A DNA stretch of 64,000 bases, from the NCBI RefSeq assembly GCF_030013595.1, contig NZ_CP122768.1. One strand, written 5' to 3'. The notes beneath the pieces are model-generated. The model did not search any database and was not told the DNA's origin. It saw only the letters and a list, made by a program, of their open reading frames with translations. Shown here piece by piece: positions 13,972 through 47,903 of the stretch (its first letter is position 1; every line of letters starts with the position of its first letter). Source of the stretch: Escherichia coli. GTDB lineage: Bacteria; Pseudomonadota; Gammaproteobacteria; Enterobacterales; Enterobacteriaceae. Position numbers and translations under genes: made by a program.

Positions 13972-15666
13972 TTGTTTGGAAATGGTATGAAAACTAAACT
14001 ATATTCGTATATTCGCTTCTCGTCTATGCGTCAGAATGATGGTTCGAGTTATGAACGGCAAATCAGGATGGCGAGAGAGGTTGCGGCAAAGTATGACCTT
14101 GAACTGGTAAATGATTATCAGGATCTGGGTGTATCTGCGTTTAAGGGTGCTAACTCTAAAACAGGGGCGCTATCTCGTTTCCTTGATGCAATTGGTAGAT
14201 CCGTTCCTGTTGGTAGCTGGCTATTCATTGAAAACTTGGACCGCTTATCCCGTGCCGATATTGTCAGTGCGCAGGAGTTATTCCTTTCAATCATCCGTAG
14301 GGGAATAACCATTGTTACTGGCATGGATAACAAGATCTACTCGCTGGATACTGTTACCGCTAATCCGATGGACCTGATGTTCTCCATCCTTCTATTCATC
14401 CGTGGTAATGAGGAAAGTCAGACTAAGCGCAATCGTACTAACTCAAGCGCATTGATTAAGATTAAAGCTCATCAAGAAAATCCCCAGAATCCGGCAGTGG
14501 CAATCGAGGAAGTTGGAAAGAATATGTGGTGGACTGATACCACATCTGGTTATGTGCTTCCTCATCCGGTCTTCTTCCCTATTGTTCAGGAAGTTGTGGA
14601 ATTACGCAGGAATGGACGGTCAACCGCCGAGATACTGGATCACCTTAACGCGACATACACACCACCACCAGCCGCAAGTCACAAGAGGCATTCAAACTGG
14701 TCACGGGCAATGATTGAAAGGTTGTTCCATACCCGCGCTTTGATTGGTATCAAGGAAATCTCTGTAGATGGCGTTAAGTATGAGTTAAAGGATTATTATC
14801 CTCGTGTGCTAGATGACGCTGAGTTTTATCACCTTAAGAAAAGCATTGGTGTTAGAGCATGTAACTATGGAGACAAGGAAGAAGTTAAACCGATCCCCCT
14901 GCTTAGTGGTGTTAATCTGCTGAAATGTGATCATTGCGGTTCCGCTATGGTTAAGGTGAAAGGAACAAACAGACGGCCTAACCAATATCGTTATTCATGC
15001 GATGCAATGCGCTCTAGTCGTATTGAATGTGTGCATACAAACTGGAGTTTTCGCGGCGACCAATTAGAGAAAGCTGTATTGCAATTGCTGGCTGATAAAA
15101 TCTGGATTGCTGAAGATAAGGCTAATCCGGTTCCGGCTTTGAAAGTACAGATTGATGAAATATCACGCAAGATTGATAACCTGATTGCCCTTTCTGCTAT
15201 GACAGGAGCAACGAAGGAGCTAGCCGATCAGATTACTACCCTCAATAGCGAGCGTGAAACACTCTACAATCAGATCAAGATGGCAGAAGAGGAAATGTAT
15301 TCTGTGGACTCTCAAGGCTGGGAGAAGCTCGCAGAATTTGATTTAGAAGATGTTTACAACGAGGATCGCATTAAGGTCCGGTTTAAGATTAAGCAAGCTC
15401 TAAAACGGATCGGGTGTAGCAGGATTGACAAGTACAAAAACTTGTTTGTACTGGAATACATCGATGGCAAGACCCAGAGAGTTGTAATAGAAAATTCAAG
15501 AGGACCGAGGAAAGGCCGGATCTTCGTTGATTTGAAGACTATCAATGATAGGCAGATTCTGGAGAGTAACGGGCTTGTTCTGCATCCATGTTTAGACATG
15601 CTGACAGATAAGAACTGGAAACCAGAAGAGGAAATACCAGGTCCATTACAGGAATTTGGAATTTAA
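13972..15666 (+). CDS. large serine recombinase (putative prophage integrase)
   Basis: 564 aa; resolvase-type catalytic motif YIRFSSMRQ at N-terminus, Cys-rich zinc-ribbon segment CDHCGS...YRYSCDAMRSSRIEC and coiled-coil, typical of large serine integrases. Confidence 0.8.
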   Translation: MFGNGMKTKLYSYIRFSSMRQNDGSSYERQIRMAREVAAKYDLELVNDYQDLGVSAFKGANSKTGALSRFLDAIGRSVPVGSWLFIENLDRLSRADIVSAQELFLSIIRRGITIVTGMDNKIYSLDTVTANPMDLMFSILLFIRGNEESQTKRNRTNSSALIKIKAHQENPQNPAVAIEEVGKNMWWTDTTSGYVLPHPVFFPIVQEVVELRRNGRSTAEILDHLNATYTPPPAASHKRHSNWSRAMIERLFHTRALIGIKEISVDGVKYELKDYYPRVLDDAEFYHLKKSIGVRACNYGDKEEVKPIPLLSGVNLLKCDHCGSAMVKVKGTNRRPNQYRYSCDAMRSSRIECVHTNWSFRGDQLEKAVLQLLADKIWIAEDKANPVPALKVQIDEISRKIDNLIALSAMTGATKELADQITTLNSERETLYNQIKMAEEEMYSVDSQGWEKLAEFDLEDVYNEDRIKVRFKIKQALKRIGCSRIDKYKNLFVLEYIDGKTQRVVIENSRGPRKGRIFVDLKTINDRQILESNGLVLHPCLDMLTDKNWKPEEEIPGPLQEFGI

Positions 15667-15942
15667 GCGGCCTAAATCGACGTATAACGAGCTAAAACAG
15701 TTAAGGGGTACAGATGTACCCCTTTTTAATTTAATTGCGTTAGGCAGCGTAAGCAAGTTTCATAGTAGTTTCCTCTAAAATAATAAGTTCACTACTATTT
15801 ATCAGAGAAAATTGTCTTACTATTGCATTCTCTATCTGGATGTGGGTATAGGCGGGATTGAATACGGCAAAACTGAAACATTCCACTACTGCAATAAATC
15901 ACTAAACAATATAAAGAATATTGCAAGTGTGGAGTGGAACTA

Positions 15943-16254
15943 ATGCAAGATATTAAAATTCATTTTCAAGATTACAGTTTCGTTAAGGTTGATTGCTCTC
16001 CTTCTATCGGAATGGAATTAAGAGATTATTTCTCGTTTGAGGTTGAAGGGGCTAGGTTTAGCCCCCGTTACAAGTATTCTGGCTGGGATGGACGAATAAG
16101 ACTGTTTACGCATGAAAACACCCTACCAATTGGACTATTAAAAACGTTGGGTGTCTTCGTTAAAAATATGGGCTATTCAGTCTGGATTGACCCCAGATTG
16201 CTTGAGAAGGAAGATGTAACCAAAGACGCGATTAATGAATGGATTGATTCCTTA
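15943..16254 (+). pseudogene. UvsW-like SF2 helicase, N-terminal fragment (interrupted by IS1)
   Basis: MQDIKIHFQDYSFVKVDC... runs in frame into the IS1 left end; the frame continues on the other side of IS1. Confidence 0.7.
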
Positions 16255-16309
16255 GGTGATGCTGCCAACTTACTGATTTAGTGTATGATGGTGTTTTTGA
16301 GGTGCTCCA

Positions 16310-16585
16310 GTGGCTTCTGTTTCTATCAGCTGTCCCTCCTGTTCAGCTACTGACGGGGTGGTGCGTAACGGCAAAAGCACCGCCGGACATCAGCGCTATC
16401 TCTGCTCTCACTGCCGTAAAACATGGCAACTACAGTTCACTTACGCCGCCTCTCAGCCCGGTACGCACCAGAAAATCATTGATATGGCCATGAATGGCGT
16501 CGGATGTCGCGCCAGTGCACGCATTATTGGCGTTGGCCTCAACACGATTTTCCGCCACTTAAAAAACTCAGGCCGCAGTCGGTAA
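16310..16585 (+). CDS. insA: IS1 InsA
   Basis: 91 aa [43 protein letters not shown]..., zinc finger plus HTH. Confidence 0.9.
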
Positions 16586-17007
16586 CCTCGCGCATACAAC
16601 CGGGCAGTGATGTGATTGTCTGCGCTGAAATGGACGAACAGTGGGGCTACGTCGGTGCTAAATCACGTCAGCGCTGGCTGTTTTACGCGTATGACAGGAT
16701 GCGGAGGACGGTTGTGGCGCACGTCTTCGGTGAACGCACTCTGGCCACACTGGAGCGTCTTCTGAGCCTGCTGTCGGCCTTTGAGGTCGTGGTATGGATG
16801 ACGGATGGCTGGCCGCTGTATGAATCACGCCTGAAGGGAAAGCTGCACGTTATCAGCAAGCGTTATACTCAGCGCATTGAGCGGCATAACCTGAATCTGA
16901 GACAACATCTGGCAAGGCTGGGACGGAAGTCACTGTCGTTCTCAAAATCGGTGGAGCTGCATGACAAGGTCATCGGGCATTATCTGAACATAAAACACTA
17001 TCAGTAA
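16504..17007 (+). CDS. insB: IS1 InsB reading frame (expressed as InsAB' by -1 frameshift)
   Basis: 167 aa frame overlapping insA 3' end; DDE transposase core. Confidence 0.85.
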
Positions 17008-17022
17008 GTTGGAGTCATTACC

Positions 17023-18210
17023 GATTCCTTAGAAGTGTATTCCGGTAGCAATAAAATCAATCCTTATTGGTATCAAAGGGAGGCAGTCTTTCAGGGTATC
17101 CACAATCGCCGTAGAATGCTGGTTCTTCCTACCAGTGCCGGAAAGTCATTGATTGCTTGTATGCTGTCTCGTTGGTACTTAGAGAACTACACCGGAAAAG
17201 TGTTAATCATTGTTCCGACTACATCGCTAGTGGTTCAAATGAGGGATGATTTCATCGATTATAGGCTATTCCCTTATGAAGCAATTCATACAATGATGAG
17301 TGGTAGCGGGAAACATCCGGGAGACAGGTTAATCACGGTTAGTACCTGGCAATCAGCTTGCAAGATGCCTCCTGAATGGTTCCGACAATATGGAATGTTG
17401 ATAGTTGATGAATCGCATAAGGCTAGTGCCAAAAATATTACCAATATCATCAATGGAATGAATCATTGCCAATTTAAGATCGGCATGACTGGTTCCCCGA
17501 AAGAATCAAAGTGCCATTTAATGCAGTATGTCGGGCTTTTCGGTGATATTTCTAAGATCGTGAGTATTGACCGCCTGATGGAAGAAGGGCAGGTGACAAA
17601 ACTGAAAATTAACTGTCTTTTCCTTCGTTATACAGATGAGGAATGTAGCGCGGTTAAGGGGCGAGAATATGCGGAAGAGATCAAGTATATTACGTCTAAC
17701 CCACGACGAAATAAGTTTGCTTGTAATTTGGCGCTAAAACTAGCTAAGAAGGGCGAAAACGTATTCCTGATGTTCCGCAATACTAAGCACGGAAAACTTA
17801 TGTATGATGCGTTACAGAAGGTACACGACAAGGTTTATTATATTGACGGTGGAGTTAAGACAGAAGAACGTGATGAATTTAAGAAAATGGCGGAGGGTGA
17901 CACCGGGATCATTTGCGTTGCATCCTATGGTGTGTTCTCTACTGGTGTTTCAATTAAGAATTTGCATCATGTTATTTTCGGTCATCCAGTGAAGGAATCA
18001 ACTATCGTTCGTCAGAGTATCGGTCGTGCATTGCGTAAACATGGTTCTAAGGATATTGCAACGGTCTGGGATCTTATAGATCATCTGTGTATATTCGGTC
18101 GTAACGGAAAAGTCAAGCATAAAAATTATGCGGTAAAACATGCACTTGAGAGAATCCGCTATTATCTAACCGACAAGTTCAGCTATGCAACTAAAACAAT
18201 TGCTATATAA
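17023..18210 (+). pseudogene. UvsW-like SF2 helicase, C-terminal fragment
   Basis: Walker A LVLPTSAGKSL, DExH box IVDESHKA, helicase C-terminal motifs VASYGVFSTGVSIKNLHHVIFG and GRALRKHGSKDIATVWDL; in frame with the N-fragment across the IS1 target duplication. Confidence 0.7.
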
Positions 18211-34440: not shown

Positions 34441-34911
34441 TTAAAAACGCGCTAGATAAGAAAATTTAAGGCTAAGTGTCCCAACGATACCCCCATCACT
34501 AGAATCATCGTCATAATCGGTATTAGAAGCTACTGGAGTGATATCTGAAATTGAGAAGCCCAAATCTTTAAAACGTGGGTTATCCGGCTGAATCTGGATT
34601 ATCTGGCAAATACCCTCATGAATTTTGGTTTCATGAATCTGAGAATACAATTGCATTTCGATAACGCATTCAGCTTGCATTGCATTACCGCCACGGACCC
34701 TATTGTAAGTCTCATTCATTCCGGTGATCCAACAAACCACGTCATCACTAAAGCCTTGCTGAGTTTGTTCTACGTTTAAAGCCAGACCTAAATCTTGTTC
34801 GATAATATCCTGCAAGGCGCGTTTGATTTTCAGTCTAGGCATATTATTAACGGTAGCGAGCATGTGTACCCCCTGCCAGAGTGATAAAGCAATCAGTTGT
34901 ATTGTCACCAT
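34441..34911 (-). CDS. head-tail joining protein candidate
   Basis: 156 aa ORF in head-to-tail junction region; true start may be the internal Met. Confidence 0.35.
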   Translation of the reverse strand: MVTIQLIALSLWQGVHMLATVNNMPRLKIKRALQDIIEQDLGLALNVEQTQQGFSDDVVCWITGMNETYNRVRGGNAMQAECVIEMQLYSQIHETKIHEGICQIIQIQPDNPRFKDLGFSISDITPVASNTDYDDDSSDGGIVGTLSLKFSYLARF

Positions 34912-39427: not shown

Positions 39428-41332
39428 TTAGAACGATGTTACCCAGCTACGGCCTCTATTTGGGCGTCTGACGATGTTTTGACGTTGTGGTCGTGTGATT
39501 GGCTTAGTTTCTTCGATTTGCTCGTCAGATTGCGATTTAGGAGCTTCTACAGGTTCTTCTGGTTCACGGTTCAAACTATCTTTGATGGCTTCGAGTTTTT
39601 CCCATGACATTTTATTGAGTACATGACGAGAAGCAGCATAGGAATAAGCCAGGCAGTCCAACGCTTCGTTTCGTGTTTGTCCAACTTTTACCCAACGTGT
39701 GGTATTACCCTGCCGTTTCAACTGTTCAGAAAGCAATTGCTCGCAATAGTCATCAGGAACGTCACCAATCTGGAAGACAGTGTGAGGATCGCCATCTCTC
39801 AAGTTCCGGTTAATCATTTCACGGATCATCGTTTTAAGGTTGTTTACGCCCAGAATTTTAAGGGTAAAACCACCCGTTCTTGTGTCTTTTACCGGAAGGA
39901 TTGGTGCATCAACATTGCTTGCGCCTTTAATGGCGGTTAGATTTTGCCACCGACTACAGAATCGATAGATCACGTTTGTAGCTCGTCCGTTCGATGAGTC
40001 CACGAAAGCAGATAACATCGGGATTCGTTCACCGGATCGGGTATAGAATTTAGCTTTCAGGAAGTTGTAAAGCTGGTTATATGCTGGTGATTCGTGGCGT
40101 TCGCAGTTCACATCATAGAATGATCGGTGATCAACTACGCATAGCCCTTTACGAGAAATACCCAGCAAGGTAGATTCCAGACGGTCTTTTTGCTGGTCAA
40201 CTCCACCTACCAGAGCCAGTACATCATCAGGAATATTGTCTAGGCTAATATCAGTTTTCAGCGTTTCTAATTCGTCGGCTGTGCGGTCTTCGTTAAGATC
40301 ATCGAAGGTTTCACCGAGGACTGTATTGTAGAACGTTGCCAGGGACATATTCGCGTAGCTATCAGCAAAGTCCACCACACACGCACGGATAGAACTAAAC
40401 GGAGACATAAGGCGGTTAGCATGAAAACCGATTACTTCCGCGTTTGGTTCGGTGGCGACCCATTCTCCCTGTCCAACAGCACGTAGGCGATCACCCTCGG
40501 TCCAATCGGTTTCACATTCAGGGCAACGGTAAACGGCTGTATCTGGGTTGGGTAATGATTTACCGTTAATCGTATGCCAATCGAAATGTACGTTACTCCA
40601 TTCCATTACGTGCTTGTGTCCGCAATGCTGGCAAACGACATGATATTTTCTCTTATCCGAGAGTTCCCATTGTTGGTTAATCGCCCCATCACGAGCGGTT
40701 GGAGTGGAAGCAATTACGATCCTTGCATCTTCCCCGAAAGTGGTTGCGCGTTGTTCCGCTAGTTGGATCGGGTTCCCTTCGTCTGACTCATCAGCCGCAT
40801 CAACTTCATCAAGAATAATCAAAGGGAGTGTTTTACCGCGAAGATGTGACGGACTATTCAACGACATGAAATACATAAACGATCCGTTACGAAGCTGAAT
40901 AATCGATGAGTTGTTAACGGCATTGCGATCTGATTTGTCGGTGATCATCGCCTTTAATTCTGGTGTTGCCTCTAATACTGGCTTCACCTTACCAGCGATC
41001 CAAGAATTTAGTTCTCTAACGTTACTTTGCAACACCCCAATATTAGTAGGGTTACTCGCGATCCGATGGAAGATAATTCCGTTAAGAATCATGGTCTTAC
41101 CCAACTGTGCCGAACATTTAAACACAATTTTTCTACGGTCTTCGGTGATCGCGTCCATCATTCCACGTTGGAAGGGATGCAATTTAATTAGCGATCCGGC
41201 TTTAACACCATCGGTTGCAACTACATTAGCCTCTACCCATTCGCTAGGTTTCATCGTTTTAGGTGGGCGAATTGCCGCAGAGATATTTTTAAGAATCTTT
41301 TTTAATTTTGCCTTGTTCGAAATCAGTTTCAT
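39428..41332 (-). CDS. terminase large subunit (GpA-like)
   Basis: 634 aa; Walker A-like FKCSAQLGKTMILNG, acidic DE-rich nuclease region at C-terminus. Confidence 0.8.
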   Translation of the reverse strand: MKLISNKAKLKKILKNISAAIRPPKTMKPSEWVEANVVATDGVKAGSLIKLHPFQRGMMDAITEDRRKIVFKCSAQLGKTMILNGIIFHRIASNPTNIGVLQSNVRELNSWIAGKVKPVLEATPELKAMITDKSDRNAVNNSSIIQLRNGSFMYFMSLNSPSHLRGKTLPLIILDEVDAADESDEGNPIQLAEQRATTFGEDARIVIASTPTARDGAINQQWELSDKRKYHVVCQHCGHKHVMEWSNVHFDWHTINGKSLPNPDTAVYRCPECETDWTEGDRLRAVGQGEWVATEPNAEVIGFHANRLMSPFSSIRACVVDFADSYANMSLATFYNTVLGETFDDLNEDRTADELETLKTDISLDNIPDDVLALVGGVDQQKDRLESTLLGISRKGLCVVDHRSFYDVNCERHESPAYNQLYNFLKAKFYTRSGERIPMLSAFVDSSNGRATNVIYRFCSRWQNLTAIKGASNVDAPILPVKDTRTGGFTLKILGVNNLKTMIREMINRNLRDGDPHTVFQIGDVPDDYCEQLLSEQLKRQGNTTRWVKVGQTRNEALDCLAYSYAASRHVLNKMSWEKLEAIKDSLNREPEEPVEAPKSQSDEQIEETKPITRPQRQNIVRRPNRGRSWVTSF

Positions 41333-43784: not shown

Positions 43785-43905
43785 GTTACATCCTCTTTAC
43801 AAATCTAGGTCAAATAGGTTCAAAGTTGTCAAGTGCGATAATCATAAAAAAGTTTGAAGATATTGTCAAATACCACTTGACAAGACACCAAAGGGTTGAC
43901 CTAAC

Positions 43906-44094
43906 TTACAGCATATCTAAGCCTTCATCGTAACCGTAGAAGCCATTCTGAGAAGAGAAGCAGATTGGTGCGTAGTCGTCGTCATCTTCGTCTTGTTCAT
44001 CTTGTTCTGGGGCTTCCTGAGCGGTTTCTTTGCCGTAGTTAAACATGGCTTCATCCAGTTCATAGTGGAAATCCTCTAAAAGAAAGTGAATCAA
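43906..44094 (-). CDS. small acidic protein
   Basis: 62 aa with EQDEQDEDDDD tract; first gene after the control region on the minus strand. Confidence 0.35.
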   Translation of the reverse strand: MIHFLLEDFHYELDEAMFNYGKETAQEAPEQDEQDEDDDDYAPICFSSQNGFYGYDEGLDML

Positions 44095-44743
44095 TCTAAT
44101 ATTATTTATAAAGAGAAAATTCTTGTTATTATGAAAGGAGTGATCTGGTAGAGTCCAAAACTGGTCTGTACTTGAAAGGTGATTGGATTCAGTCGGGCAA
44201 AGCCCTCCTTCATGTTTTGATTAAATCATCATCAAAACGAAGAAGTATCTTTAGAATATAAGATCTTTCTTTTGGAGAAATAATAATCAGGAAGCAATTT
44301 GGCAACCGAAGGTTGCAATCCCGAAGGGATAACCAATACCTTTCTAGAAAGTGATTGTTACTCACTTCGTTCGTTTACTAGAATCAGTTATCATCTGGTA
44401 TTAAATCCCTTTCTAAGAAAATCCTTTCAAAAGTGATTCTCGATGCCACGCAGTGGCGTCGCAGACGTTTGGGAGTGAGCGAAGCGAGCGAGCAAACTAG
44501 TTAATTCCTTCTAAGACCATCTAGTATCATCTAGTTTAAATTAGTTGTTACTAGAAGCAATTGGTTGGCGCTTCGCGCAGTCGGGCTAAAGCCCTCCTAA
44601 TTATCTTTTTGGTTATTTGTTGTTTTTAGTTTTACACATGAGCGTAGCGAATGTGTTATATAATATCTATGCACGCCCAATCCCCCGCTTTTTCCCCTCA
44701 CTAAGTTAATGTTTTATAAAGAGTTTTTCTCACCAATCCTTTT

Positions 44744-44931
44744 CGGGGGCAAATTTCAGGGGCAAAAATTAGATTTTCAGGGGCAAAAATAGTGGGTTTC
44801 AGGGGCAAAAATGAGGGGCAAAATCACTGTTTCCCAGAATTTCAGGGGCAAAAATAGTGGGTTTCAGGGGCAAAAATGGGATGTGGAATCTAGGGGATTT
44901 TGGTTCAGGGGCAAAATTCAGGGGCAATTTT
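44744..44931. repeat. iteron-like direct-repeat array, about 9 copies of TTCAGGGGCAAAAAT at mostly 21-22 bp spacing
   Basis: copies at 44757, 44777, 44799, 44842, 44864, 44905, 44918 plus degenerate copies at 44745 and 44813; two 22-bp units AGTGGGTTTCAGGGGCAAAAAT are identical. Confidence 0.65.
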
Positions 44932-44968
44932 CATAGTGTAGGGCTAGTGTAGGTTTGAAAATCCTTTG

Positions 44969-44997
44969 TTGACACTGTGTAGGATCGGTGGTATACT
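44969..44997 (+). promoter_or_regulatory. consensus sigma70 promoter (TTGACA-17 bp-TATACT)
   Basis: perfect -35 hexamer, 17-bp spacer, near-consensus -10; points toward the plus-strand right-arm genes. Confidence 0.5.
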
Positions 44998-45445
44998 TGA
45001 AAATTCGAGATAAATATGTTATAATATTTGTATTGAAAGTGAAAATTTACCGATTTTCCTTCCTATTGTTATCACCGTGTTAAATTGTTATATGTCTGTG
45101 AAGATTTGGATCTGAGAGAAAATCTTGTAACAAATCTTTACAATTCATAGCTCAATTAATGCTCACCGCTTTAGCAAAAAGTGCTATGCCTTTTTCTAAA
45201 TTGATTGAATATACATCAATTTGGTTAAATCGTGTTCTTCGCTTTAGCAATTCGTGCTGTGGTTTAACACATTTAACACGTCTGATAACATCTGAATAAC
45301 ATTTTAACATATCTCTGTTATAAATACATATATAAGAGATAAATGTGAGGGGTTGAAAAATAAAATACAATCCCATATAAATAATAGTGAGCGGTTAACG
45401 CTCTTTTTTAAGAAATCATTAATCCACATTGTAGGAGGATTCGAG

Positions 45446-45628
45446 ATGGCACGACCTGTTAAGTTCACTCGCGAAATCATCTTAGAAATGGCTAAACGCT
45501 ACTTTGAGTTAACGCCGGGTGTGAGAATTGAAGAGTGGTTTAAAAATGAGGGCATCGATAAATCAACCTTTCATAAACTGCTAAAACGATATGACATTAA
45601 AGTGAAGATTGAAGCTACCGTTTGGTAA
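45446..45628 (+). CDS. small DNA-binding protein (paralog of 41499..41732)
   Basis: ORF 45353..45628 trimmed to the ATG with TAGGAGG RBS (MARPVKFTREIIL...); 60 aa. Confidence 0.5.
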   Translation: MARPVKFTREIILEMAKRYFELTPGVRIEEWFKNEGIDKSTFHKLLKRYDIKVKIEATVW

Positions 45629-45742: not shown

Positions 45743-46684
45743 ATGTTATTTTCCGCTAACTTTTTCACTAACGAAGTAACCAACGCTAAAGCAGTTATCA
45801 AATTTGGCACCGAAGCAAACAAGAAGATTCAGCCGAAAGTTGTTGCTCATGTTTCCTTTGCGCAGCAGAAATCCGCTTTCGCTGGCTTTAAAGCACATCG
45901 TGAAGCACTGATCGCGGCTGGCTTTGGTGTTGACGGTAAACTGCCTAACGGCATTCGTAAAGCAATCGACCGCGTTAAACCAGTTAAAGACGTTGCAGTA
46001 GACCACATCGTTACTTTTACCGTTAAGAACTCTTCTGAACTGTTCCACCTGGTTATTGCTGGTGATACTGCTATCGTTTCCGCTCCTAACATGGATTTTC
46101 AGGATACCGCTGATTGCCAGATCACCTTCGGTCGTCGTAAAGAAGTTACCGGAAAAGCTAAACTGAACTTCACTAAATCCGGCAATCCTTACTTTGCTGT
46201 ATTCTTTAACAGCCACGCTACCGAAAAAGAAGTTGTAGAACTGGTTGCTTATGAAGGTGAAGAGAAAGAACGTATTGAATCTTGCGAAGCATTTCTGGAA
46301 CTGGAAGCACAGGTGAATGCTGTTTCTCCGGTTGTTGAAGATCGCTTTGCTGCACTGGAAGCACAGATCGCAGAACTGAAAGCTGCACTGGAAGAAAAAG
46401 ACCAGATTATCGAAGCACAGAAAGCTGAGATTGAAGAACTGAAAGCTAAAGAAGTTGCTCCGGTGGCAGTAGTTGAAAACGCGGCTGATGAGGCCGCAAA
46501 TGATGAAGTAGAAGTGAAAATCGATGTGATGCGTGATCCGATGGCTGCACTGCAATTACTTCGTTCTTTTAAGGGCAAATCTCATTTTTCTAGTGATGTA
46601 GAAGATGAGGAAGAAGAACAGAAACGCAATGCTGCAATGCTTCATGATGAAATGTACGGTACTAACTTTTCTTACTGCCAATAA
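45743..46684 (+). CDS. hypothetical protein with central coiled-coil and acidic C-terminus (moron-like)
   Basis: 313 aa; AGGAG RBS; codon usage (CTG, CGT, GGT, AAA, GAA, AAC, TTC) resembles highly expressed E. coli genes and differs from the rest of the prophage. Confidence 0.6.
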   Translation: MLFSANFFTNEVTNAKAVIKFGTEANKKIQPKVVAHVSFAQQKSAFAGFKAHREALIAAGFGVDGKLPNGIRKAIDRVKPVKDVAVDHIVTFTVKNSSELFHLVIAGDTAIVSAPNMDFQDTADCQITFGRRKEVTGKAKLNFTKSGNPYFAVFFNSHATEKEVVELVAYEGEEKERIESCEAFLELEAQVNAVSPVVEDRFAALEAQIAELKAALEEKDQIIEAQKAEIEELKAKEVAPVAVVENAADEAANDEVEVKIDVMRDPMAALQLLRSFKGKSHFSSDVEDEEEEQKRNAAMLHDEMYGTNFSYCQ

Positions 46685-46712
46685 AAAAAGGGACTCCGAA
46701 GAGTCCCTAGTA
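46684..46712 (-). terminator. rho-independent terminator (reads as terminator on minus strand)
   Basis: GGGACTC-CGAA-GAGTCCC with A-run on the plus strand (T-run on minus). Confidence 0.5.
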
Positions 46713-46968
46713 AGTTTAGGTTAGGTTTGCACAACAAAGATGAGGTTATAATGAATATAATGCTACATTATTCTTTAAAGCCAGAAAAATAACCGCCCCC
46801 TTCGGGGCGGGAGGATTAATACTCAATCTATACTTGTTATGTTTTTATGTTGTATAGTCACTGACTATGAAAACACTGTACTGAATGTGTTTTATGGCTT
46901 TTAATCGGGAACTCTCTTTCGAAAATTCCCTGTTAAAACCACATAAGGAGAAAAGGCAGATTACAATA

Positions 46969-47345: not shown

Positions 47346-47903
47346 TTAAGACACATCAAATTCATCGTCTTCTTCTGGTTCTTGTTCTTCCGGTTCATCC
47401 ATTAATGGTAATTCTTCTTCCTCGTCTTCTCCCAAATCTGCATTTTCGAACAAGTCCCCTACTTCATTTAAACGACGCTCGATGATCTCCCTTAGCTTAT
47501 TCTTTAATGTTTTCTGGTCATTGGCAGATTCGAGAATTTCTAGGGCATCGATCGTACAAATCTGCAAAATAGTCTGCTTCACTTTCCCGCAATATTCCGC
47601 TAGTTGCTGTTCTACATAACCGACAGGAATCAGGAGGTTCATTTTTTCCTGATTCTCTCGTTCGGCTGCATCTGCCATTGCTCTTTCTCTGCGGAGACGT
47701 TCTTGATCAATCGCTTCTTTGATTGAAGTTTGTTTAAGTGGGTTAATTACGTTCTTTAGCACCCAATCGCAACCTTCCTTTGCCGGAACACGCCTCTTAT
47801 TGGTATTGTAAGGTAGTCCCCTTTCTAACCATCGCTTACCGCCACCATTCAATGTATAGCCATATAAACGGGAAATTTCTGTAAGGGTTAATTCTTCTTT
47901 CAT
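47346..47903 (-). CDS. wHTH DNA-binding protein, Nu1-like (terminase small subunit candidate or regulator)
   Basis: 185 aa; N-terminal LTEISRLYGYTLNGGGKRWLERGLPY resembles the recalled lambda Nu1 LADIFGASIRTIQNWQEQGMP...GGGKG region; acidic C-terminal tail. Confidence 0.4.
   Translation of the reverse strand: MKEELTLTEISRLYGYTLNGGGKRWLERGLPYNTNKRRVPAKEGCDWVLKNVINPLKQTSIKEAIDQERLRRERAMADAAERENQEKMNLLIPVGYVEQQLAEYCGKVKQTILQICTIDALEILESANDQKTLKNKLREIIERRLNEVGDLFENADLGEDEEEELPLMDEPEEQEPEEDDEFDVS

Follow-up and report, generated by a model that had tools for sequence, protein, structure and literature searches.

A gene-free early control region of an uncharacterised Escherichia coli prophage combines a direct-repeat array, a co-varying 313-aa protein and conserved mini-hairpins, and may contain its replication origin

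We analysed a 64,000-nt stretch of Escherichia coli DNA (contig NZ_CP122768.1 of assembly GCF_030013595.1; in the following, the window), in which a prophage leaves the interval 44095-45445 free of genes. From left to right, this interval comprises a module of eight small hairpins (44190..44598), a T-rich spacer (44599..44742, plus strand), an array of nine direct repeats (44743..44929, plus strand), two tandem promoters (44969..45025, plus strand) and a structured leader (45004..45412, plus strand). It is followed on the plus strand by a gene for a basic 60-aa helix-turn-helix (HTH)-like protein (45446..45628) and by the gene of a 313-aa protein (45743..46684), an orphan open reading frame (ORFan) that is our candidate for the array-binding protein. 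An earlier note on this DNA had pointed out the array, a promoter, palindromes and hairpins, and all of the features it listed are present at or within a few bases of where it had placed them.

The gene-free character of the interval stands. No plus-strand open reading frame (ORF) of at least 60 aa lies within 44095-45445, and the one minus-strand ORF (74 aa, 45152-45376), which the note had already dismissed, is disrupted by indels of 1-2 nt in relatives with 93-100% identity and is therefore not coding. Related DNA is found in 57 of 5,426 complete E. coli genomes, chromosomal in each; additional relatives were drawn from IMG/VR and other assemblies. A scan with the pattern of hairpin h1 (see below) led to seven contigs not met before, two of which (L040, L057) proved to be chance matches in GC-rich DNA. 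The prokaryotic genome annotation pipeline (PGAP) places no coding sequence in the region in most of the relatives' records listed, and the non-coding stretch measures 1.2-1.5 kb in every case (about 1.0 kb in locus L024 when its 66-aa ORF call is counted). It is always bordered by a minus-strand gene of about 150 aa with an acidic tail and by the 60-aa plus-strand gene. In the window, the former is represented by a remnant of 62 aa (43906..44094, minus strand), for which the alignment shows an internal deletion. The region itself is a mosaic, i.e., the hairpin module, the spacer with the array, and the leader module recombine independently.

First, we characterised the array. With at most two mismatches, TCAGGGGCAAAA starts at 44743, 44756, 44777, 44799, 44812, 44842, 44864, 44905 and 44918, always on the plus strand. 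The array is real, unique and directional: nine direct boxes fall within 187 bp, no further good copy exists in the prophage, and the whole window contains 19 matches where 6.2 are expected, a count that no shuffle reached. The copy number given earlier is thereby confirmed, while the uniform two-turn periodicity of 21-22 bp is not, since the boxes are spaced by 13, 21, 22, 13, 30, 22, 41 and 13 bp. The array shares with iteron arrays the presence of at least three direct repeats of the same orientation that are unique in the replicon, and relatives hold 6-14 boxes.

Next, we compared the syntenic positions of the relatives. Absence of the repeats from these positions had been named as a result that would speak against a function; the relatives examined always have an array there, either of the same or of another type. 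Type 1, the type of the window, has the motif TTCAGGGGCAAAA (core GGGGCAA). Type 2 reads TAGTGTAGG(G/T)T (core GTGTAGG) with 6-9 copies that are in part spaced by 11 bp, and type 3 reads GTGGAATCTTGGGGATTT (GGAATCTTGGGGATTT) with five copies about 22 bp apart. Further types occur in L048, namely ACGGGGA (about 14 copies) and TGTAGGTATATTGGT, as well as in L052, namely CCTTGTACATC (about 10 copies) and CTAATACCGGGGGATTT (7 copies).

The array type is matched by the protein encoded downstream. Based on the protein and array sequences, the N-terminal 165 aa of this protein agree with the array type in 37/37 loci, many of which are close relatives, such that the independent comparisons are far fewer than 37. 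Type-1 N-domains are encoded at 21 loci with 6-14 GGGGCAA boxes each, and type-2 N-domains at 15 loci with 6-9 GTGTAGG boxes and zero GGGGCAA boxes. The one locus with a type-3 N-domain has type-3 boxes, an assignment of type 3 to this protein family that is uncertain because GGGGATTT-type boxes are present in all three loci that also encode a second, unrelated protein family (see below). Within a type, N-domains are 98-100% identical except for L024 (54%), and full-length proteins are 93-99% identical, compared to 23-30% between types. The earlier note had recognised no binding protein nearby. Here, a nearby gene (45743-46684) is found to switch its N-domain exactly with the repeat type, which homology does not reveal.

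We compared every neighbouring protein between types, and only the protein at 45743-46684 follows the array. Several other candidates for the array binder were rejected on this basis. The alleles of the 150-aa acidic-tail protein do not track the array type, nor do those of Rha and of the small leftward gene product; the 60-aa HTH-like protein has at least three alleles that are independent of array type; and the N-terminal region of the TerS-like protein is 70-98% identical across types, again without tracking. Linkage alone cannot explain the pairing of array and 313-aa protein, because the intervening 60-aa alleles (at least three) and two leader types combine with both array types. Furthermore, in a natural chimera that joins a type-1 N-domain to a type-3-like C-terminus, the array is of type 1, and specificity therefore resides in the first ~165 residues. 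In L024, where N-domain identity drops to 54%, seven AGGGGCAAAAAT boxes are found that keep the core AGGGGCAAAAA, while the spacers between them are unalignable. We thus have a cis element that is now tied to a specific ORFan protein, with at least two cleanly separable specificity types. As at iteron origins, the adjacent gene appears to encode a cognate candidate initiator of matching specificity, to which the co-variation points given recombination on both sides of, and between, the two partners. Judged from these comparisons, the 313-aa protein is likely the partner that binds the array.

An N-domain that co-varies with its repeats is also known from the Nu1/cosB specificity of lambda versus phage 21, and the prophage has a gpA-type large terminase, so that a cohesive-end site (cos) with repeated small-subunit sites is expected somewhere. 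The array might hence be a packaging recognition site (cosB or pac) for the small terminase subunit. The phage encodes, however, a separate Nu1-like protein (47346-47903) that does not co-vary with the array type, and the array is located inside the early region, more than 2.4 kb from either terminase gene, unlike what a lambda-type cosB would show. We consider a packaging site extremely unlikely.

Boxes of foreign type also occur in the window. Within the type-1 array of the window, one type-3 box GTGGAATCTAGGGGATTT is embedded (44883-44900, plus strand), and three type-2 boxes follow (44934..44983, plus strand), i.e., TAGTGTAGG at 44934 and 44945 as well as GTGTAGG at 44977-44983 within the promoter spacer. 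The type-2 boxes are dispensable for the type-1 protein because some type-1 relatives lack them. Going by their position beside or inside the early promoter, foreign-type boxes could let the proteins of co-resident relatives act on this phage.

Some side observations concern the arrays of relatives. In several types, G-runs occur on one strand only (e.g., L048 4215-4300, with GGGG every 8-17 nt), and type 2 (L003 4506-4536) reads TAGGGTTAGTGTAGGGTTAG, similar to a telomere repeat; the formation of G-quadruplexes or R-loops at such arrays is conceivable. The second family mentioned above is unrelated to the 313-aa protein but similar in build. Its gene lies downstream of the 313-aa homologue, its members end in PTLRLVA, and some relatives have an 80-aa coiled-coil remnant of it. 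Altogether, the second family and its coiled-coil versions of 77-80 aa end in (P/L)TLR(I/L/V)VA (L003 6520-6762, L024 6930-7163, L048 6367-7368, L052 from 8364 onward, L022 5730-6590), while several 313-aa homologues end in ...AA. Such C-termini are reminiscent of ssrA-like tags for degradation by ClpXP, and the proteins would then be unstable.

We next considered the 313-aa protein itself. Its N-terminal domain, which spans about residues 1-160, is basic (pI 9.8) and beta-rich; a coiled coil (182-237) follows, and the protein ends in a disordered tail of acidic character. This build is common to all types, i.e., the N-domain is basic (pI about 9.8) and the remainder is acidic with a predicted long coiled coil. 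An AlphaFold2 model has modest confidence, and its beta-rich N-domain finds generic barrels only. No informative match was obtained in Pfam, PHROG, NCBIfam, PADLOC or PDB sequences, and no match by tblastn against isolated phages and 72,556 plasmids. A search of 5.8 billion proteins yielded near-identical E. coli copies only, and among 1.84 billion representatives the family comprises just 11 clusters.

The prophage as a whole adds to the picture. Neither a replication gene nor a CI-type repressor can be recognised in any part of it, and a helicase, loader, primase or polymerase of the phage's own is missing; the one helicase gene in the window's copy is split and, as discussed below, probably cargo, and the relative in strain EC416 does not even have that. 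An early-operon ORFan with its own array is the obvious initiator candidate because the phage has no recognisable replication gene.

The protein's build allows for another function. A DNA-binding domain followed by a coiled coil and a disordered tail is the architecture reported for pSK1 Par, with the DNA-binding role being putative for our N-domain, and short arrays of direct repeats upstream of the operon that encodes the candidate binder are also found at centromeres. The array could thus be a centromere-like or DNA-organising site that is bound by a segregation or anchoring protein without NTPase activity, comparable to R1 parC/ParR or pSK1 Par. The 10-11-bp phasing of the direct repeats in these systems is matched by the 11-bp spacing in type-2 relatives. 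In contrast, those systems serve plasmids, while this phage uses a large serine recombinase to integrate into hicB or ycdX. Each of the 75 places identified in complete E. coli genomes is on the chromosome, and tblastn found no relative among the 72,556 plasmids. Neither an extrachromosomal replicon nor an NTPase partner (ParA, ParM or TubZ) is found. The partition site that the earlier note had offered is ill-suited to an integrating phage, and we deem such a function very unlikely.

Upstream of the array, the hairpin module is bounded by two copies of CAGTCGGGC..GCCCTCCT; the motif CAGTCGGGC(T)AAAGCCCTCCT, which had been noticed before, indeed occurs twice (44190-44209 and 44578-44598). Its eight small G+C-rich hairpins are located at 44195-44205 (h1), 44302-44316 (h2), 44318-44330 (h3), 44445-44457 (h4), 44458-44466 (h5), 44479-44485 (h6), 44568-44578 (h7) and 44583-44594 (h8), with conserved AAAGTGAT and AATCC(C)TTTC boxes between them. 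The stems vary among relatives yet always pair, i.e., they change in a compensatory manner. For instance, h4 occurs as GCCAC-GCA-GTGGC, CGCC-GTA-GGCG, GTCCC-GTA-GGGAC, CCGCG-CTCG-CGCGG and GCGCCC-CGCA-GGGCGC, and another hairpin position has the stems GGGC/GCCC, CGGC/GCCG and GGCC/GGCC. A long-range pairing of 44473-44486 with 44569-44582 was rejected in favour of local hairpins, since the second hairpin's loop changes in relatives (from TTC to TAC or TAAA) and the first hairpin shows no compensation.

The recurrent element of the module is a GNA triloop closed by C-G. Eight N-C-GNA-G-N' mini-hairpins (six on the plus and two on the minus strand) fall into 44100-44700, a count that is exceeded nowhere in the 64 kb, where 600 nt contain 0.76 of them on average. 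All relatives keep this motif class while loop base and stems change, and the heptamer CCGAAGG is present twice in the module. DNA mini-hairpins of this kind (GCGNAGC, CCGAAGG) are extraordinarily stable and frequent at the replication initiation sites of phages such as G4, St-1 and alpha3, and CCGAAGG is also part of the RSF1010 single-strand initiation (ssi) site ssiA (PMC13037366, a 2026 review). Motif counts and conservation hence suggest an ssi-like element, that is, stable GNA-closed hairpins in strand-specific arrangement that adjoin a putative unwinding region.

The T-rich spacer between module and array contains three T-rich ~13-mers (44600-44637), a GCGTAGC mini-hairpin (44642-44648), a single match to the DnaA-box consensus (TTTTACACA, 44630-44638) and an inverted degenerate box (44689-44700); L001 and L004 have this box as a perfect GAGGGGCAAAAA, and L024 has it as well. 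The AT-rich tract that had been described next to the array does exist (44600-44740, T-rich with 66-70% A+T) but is moderate; the most AT-rich stretch (84%) lies elsewhere, namely at 45000-45050 downstream of the promoters. No convincing match to the IHF consensus or to oriC-type 13-mers was found in the region.

Among the three options left by the earlier note, i.e., phage origin, immunity switch or non-coding RNA, the origin fits this architecture best, and a structured leader RNA does lie downstream of the consensus promoter. We therefore put forward, with a probability of about 0.5, that an uncharacterised temperate E. coli phage has its early control region here, and that the array in it forms the core of a vegetative replication origin of iteron type with a new initiator. 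Here, we infer the binding itself, the origin activity, the unwinding and the priming by host factors. In the proposed mechanism, the tandem promoters (44969-45025) would drive the 60-aa and 313-aa genes, with transcription passing the long structured leader whose terminator would gate expression. The basic N-domain of the 313-aa protein would then bind the nine same-orientation boxes, and its coiled coil would join the bound copies into a single complex. The resulting strain would open the adjacent T-rich spacer, such that the cluster of C-GNA-G mini-hairpins, having members on both strands, could extrude in single-stranded DNA and be used by the host machinery (PriA primosome or DnaG primase) as signals for entry or priming.

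Beside the limited independence of the 37 comparisons and the uncertain assignment of type 3, several observations weigh against an origin of this kind. The boxes are short (core about 12 bp) and irregularly spaced, unlike classical iterons with 17-22 bp and a regular two-turn spacing. The 313-aa protein belongs to no known initiator family (Rep_3, lambda O, DnaA-like and others), and its fold is unfamiliar. The spacer is merely moderately AT-rich, and the DnaA-box match is limited to type-1 phages. With nearest-neighbour DNA folding, most individual hairpins are unremarkable and mostly not significant. Finally, L022, L048 and L052 combine the second array-region protein family with two or more array types, which is unusual for an origin.

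For 44160-44610, folding is better than that of shuffled sequences on either strand (z = -4.1 and -4.5). Since folding singles out few of the hairpins and both strands fold alike, the argument for them draws on comparison and motif enrichment, and the module may also have a role as RNA. That is, it could be a structured non-coding RNA, a lasting RNA-DNA hybrid could form with the help of the G-rich arrays, as is the case for ColE1 or lactococcal phage c2, and the 313-aa protein could read either the RNA or the displaced G-rich single strand instead of duplex DNA. In line with this, the leader 3' of the promoters is a strongly structured plus-strand RNA, G-runs are confined to the plus strand in nearly all array types, and the structure predicted for the N-domain is a beta-rich, barrel-like one and not a winged helix. 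Against it, no Rfam 15 family matches at gathering score in the whole window (only chance-level matches are obtained at E up to 10), no convincing promoter points into the hairpin module (the best candidate scores 9/12), and no G-T pair is seen in the hairpin-stem variants listed. Moreover, the conserved feature is the DNA-specific C-GNA-G closure, found on both strands. An RNA or R-loop mechanism is thus quite unlikely in our view.

For the origin interpretation, we compared the region with the closest known systems. Lambda O with ori-lambda, including lambdoid variants, is alike in that a protein of about 300 aa from the early right operon has a type-specific N-domain matched to its own repeats, that the repeats adjoin an AT-rich stretch, and that host replication proteins do the remainder. 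It differs since lambda has four 19-bp palindromic iterons inside O, compared to nine direct boxes of about 12 bp located about 800 bp upstream of the gene here; furthermore, a P-like helicase loader is missing and the 313-aa protein is similar to O neither in sequence nor in fold.

In RSF1010 oriV, hairpin signals on both strands, an AT-rich segment and iterons are arranged in this order, and the region studied here shows the same succession of hairpin signals on opposite strands, T-rich spacer and direct repeats, including the CCGAAGG mini-hairpin heptamer of ssiA. However, initiator, helicase and primase are all supplied by RSF1010 (IncQ) itself as RepC, RepA and RepB', whereas none of the three is encoded here, and the 3.5 iterons of RSF1010 are regular 20-bp repeats. 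The origins of iteron plasmids (P1 oriR/RepA, F/RepE, pSC101, R6K/pi) likewise combine a cluster of same-orientation repeats with an adjacent gene for the cognate protein (a candidate in our case), one inverted copy and, possibly in type-1 phages, a DnaA box beside a T-rich stretch. They differ from our region in that the 313-aa protein is not of Rep_3/winged-helix type, the spacing is irregular, and the element resides in an integrating phage without plasmid relatives.

Lactococcal and streptococcal phage origins (c2 ori, per31/per50, Sfi21 ori) are gene-free for more than 0.5 kb between early units, carry direct and inverted repeats and are partly transcribed. A gene-free, repeat-packed region between early transcription units is what our locus shares with them, in contrast to the different hosts, the lack of any sequence relation and the lack of a described type-matched binding protein on their side.

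A wider proposal goes beyond the origin of this phage. Here, the 313-aa family would be a new class of origin-binding proteins (basic beta-rich N-domain, coiled coil, acidic tail) whose specificity is swapped as a cassette together with the array. One such protein plus mini-hairpins that recruit the host primosome might then suffice to replicate a 36 kb temperate phage without its own helicase, loader and primase, and foreign-type boxes at the early promoter might let co-resident relatives sense or interfere with each other. We offer this as a tentative idea that we would sooner doubt than accept. Confirmation of the origin hypothesis would provide a new fold of origin-binding protein, a natural case of host-primosome recruitment via GNA mini-hairpins in a double-stranded DNA phage, and a set of compact orthogonal origin/initiator pairs for engineering.

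We also studied the transcription signals on both sides of the array. The rightward promoter TTGACA-17-TATACT (44969-44997) reported earlier is present and carries a TG extension, but with 11/12 consensus positions it is not perfect. It is directly followed by a second sigma-70 promoter (TTGAAA-17-TATAAT, 44997-45025), also with 11/12 matches and TG extension. The leader that follows is about 400 nt long and folds as RNA with z = -6.84 relative to shuffles. Its stems are invariant in 15 relatives, and one-sided changes keep G-U pairs on the plus strand. It includes the TAGCA elements, of which 45172-45186 is the perfect TAGCA-N5-TGCTA palindrome described before, while the second (45245-45259) reads TAGCA-N5-TGCTG and is imperfect. 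An intrinsic terminator (45389-45410, plus strand) ends the leader 35 nt 5' of the start codon of the 60-aa gene; the other leader type retains this terminator, with a change that is compensated. From its sequence, the leader resembles an attenuator that would act on the 60-aa and 313-aa genes. The alternative leader type contains two copies of the perfect palindrome TCAAAAATTTTGA (L003 4637-4669 and 4785-4817; also in L021, L022, L048 and L052), which is operator-like in appearance and absent from the window's leader type.

In the leftward direction, a near-consensus promoter TTGACA-17-TATGAT (43869-43841, minus strand, within 43826..43883) is flanked by the perfect 10-nt inverted repeats TTGTCAAGTG / CACTTGACAA, which are operator-like in appearance. 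Palindromes of the TTGACAnnTGTCAA kind overlap the -35 boxes of this promoter (43826-43883) and, in relatives, of the rightward promoter. They are, as far as their sequence and position tell, better candidates for classical operators than the array.

This bears on a reading of the array as a regulatory, immunity-type operator, in which the 313-aa protein would be a regulator that coats the repeats and represses or activates the divergent early promoters via its coiled coil, with the types being immunity or cross-regulation groups. The array does sit between divergent early promoters and ends, in the window, 40 bp before the -35 box; its split into at least five types is what immunity modules typically show; and a canonical repressor is not recognisable anywhere in the phage. 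The foreign-type boxes at the type-1 promoter (such as GTGTAGG at 44977-44983) could also allow for cross-talk, e.g., between the co-resident prophages of strain UTME-9, which carries a type-1 and a type-2 prophage together. When compared with CI/Cro operators, however, the boxes are direct and not palindromic, no HTH/S24 repressor is recognisable, and the distance between array and promoter is not fixed but changes with leader type from about 40 to about 190 bp. In addition, separate palindromic operator-like sites already occupy the -35 boxes, and the near-consensus promoters fit an early lytic gene rather than a maintenance repressor.

A further observation comes from strain BS74R-D, in which two different prophages of the family (L071, L072) share one genome, occupying hicB and ycdX. 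They have the same array and do not differ in their 60-aa and 313-aa proteins, while the Rha, 150-aa and terminase alleles differ. This pattern suggests gene conversion between co-resident prophages, as judged from the alleles, and such conversion could also explain the identity. Identical proteins and arrays within one genome are mildly awkward for an immunity determinant and neutral for an origin. On balance, we rate a regulatory array as unlikely, though as the strongest competitor of the origin reading and worth serious consideration.

Finally, we summarise the genomic setting of the prophage. The window is part of the E. coli chromosome, as 49.5-53.5 kb matches rlhA, sutR, ydcO and ydcL in 5,416/5,426 complete genomes. 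The prophage of about 35.5 kb forms a block with about 42% G+C (roughly 12.9-48.4 kb) that is inserted in hicB, both halves of which are annotated as truncated in relatives; the family uses two attachment sites, hicB and ycdX (adjoining ghrA). It encodes a large serine recombinase (13972-15666) and a Rha/Ant-like protein; on the minus strand, it has lysis, tail and head genes as well as the gene of the lambda gpA-type large terminase. The small-terminase-like protein (47346-47903; PHROG 57, E = 3e-11) has an N-terminus that we take to resemble Nu1, the small subunit of lambda. Its gene is not adjacent to that of the gpA-type large subunit (39428-41332), as the whole early region of about 6 kb lies between them. 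A search for virion-length contigs to locate cos gave chromosomal contigs only.

The phage lineage is uncharacterised and distant from isolated phages. Among these, the best match of its capsid protein reaches 43% identity (Escherichia phage DCP80), and identity to the capsid proteins of phiHAP-1 and VP882 is about 30%. For the non-coding region, blastn against isolated phages gave only chance AT-rich matches to T4-like phages, and a literature search returned nothing on this prophage or on the PriA-site hexamer AAGCGG. The prophage family is nonetheless common, as the 313-aa protein is listed in 2,262 blocks of a public assembly index, and types 1 and 2 combined are found in about 1% of complete E. 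coli genomes.

Some further features of the prophage are given for completeness. A superfamily 2 (SF2) helicase gene (15934-18210) is interrupted by an IS200-family transposase gene (16504-17007). Its product is weakly similar to helicases of defence systems (PbeA, Hachiman HamB). Because the otherwise complete EC416 relative lacks it entirely, this helicase is regarded as probable cargo of the prophage, by now inactivated. The tRNA scan of the non-coding region (44095-45445) was negative, while ARAGORN reports a 91-nt tRNA-Gln(TTG) on the plus strand within the minus-strand structural gene block (34586-34676), which is doubtful because of its unusual length. The 60-aa protein, first gene product of the rightward operon, has a weak Pfam match to HTH_Tnp_1 (E = 0.004). 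The intact ~150-aa protein (e.g., L001 20106-20573) has an acidic C-terminal tail that ends in ...DDDDYAPICFSSQNGFYGYDEGLDML, and the window's copy is short by about 90 internal or N-terminal residues. Next to this remnant, two weak promoter-like sites are arranged back-to-back at 44101..44132 (minus-strand site 44129-44101, plus-strand site 44105-44132) in a block TATTATTTATAA that is conserved in all relatives. At the other end of the early region, the hairpins GGGACTC-CGAA-GAGTCCC and CCGCCCC-TTCG-GGGCGGG (46686-46812) lie between the convergent 313-aa and 94-aa genes and are probably the terminators of both operons.

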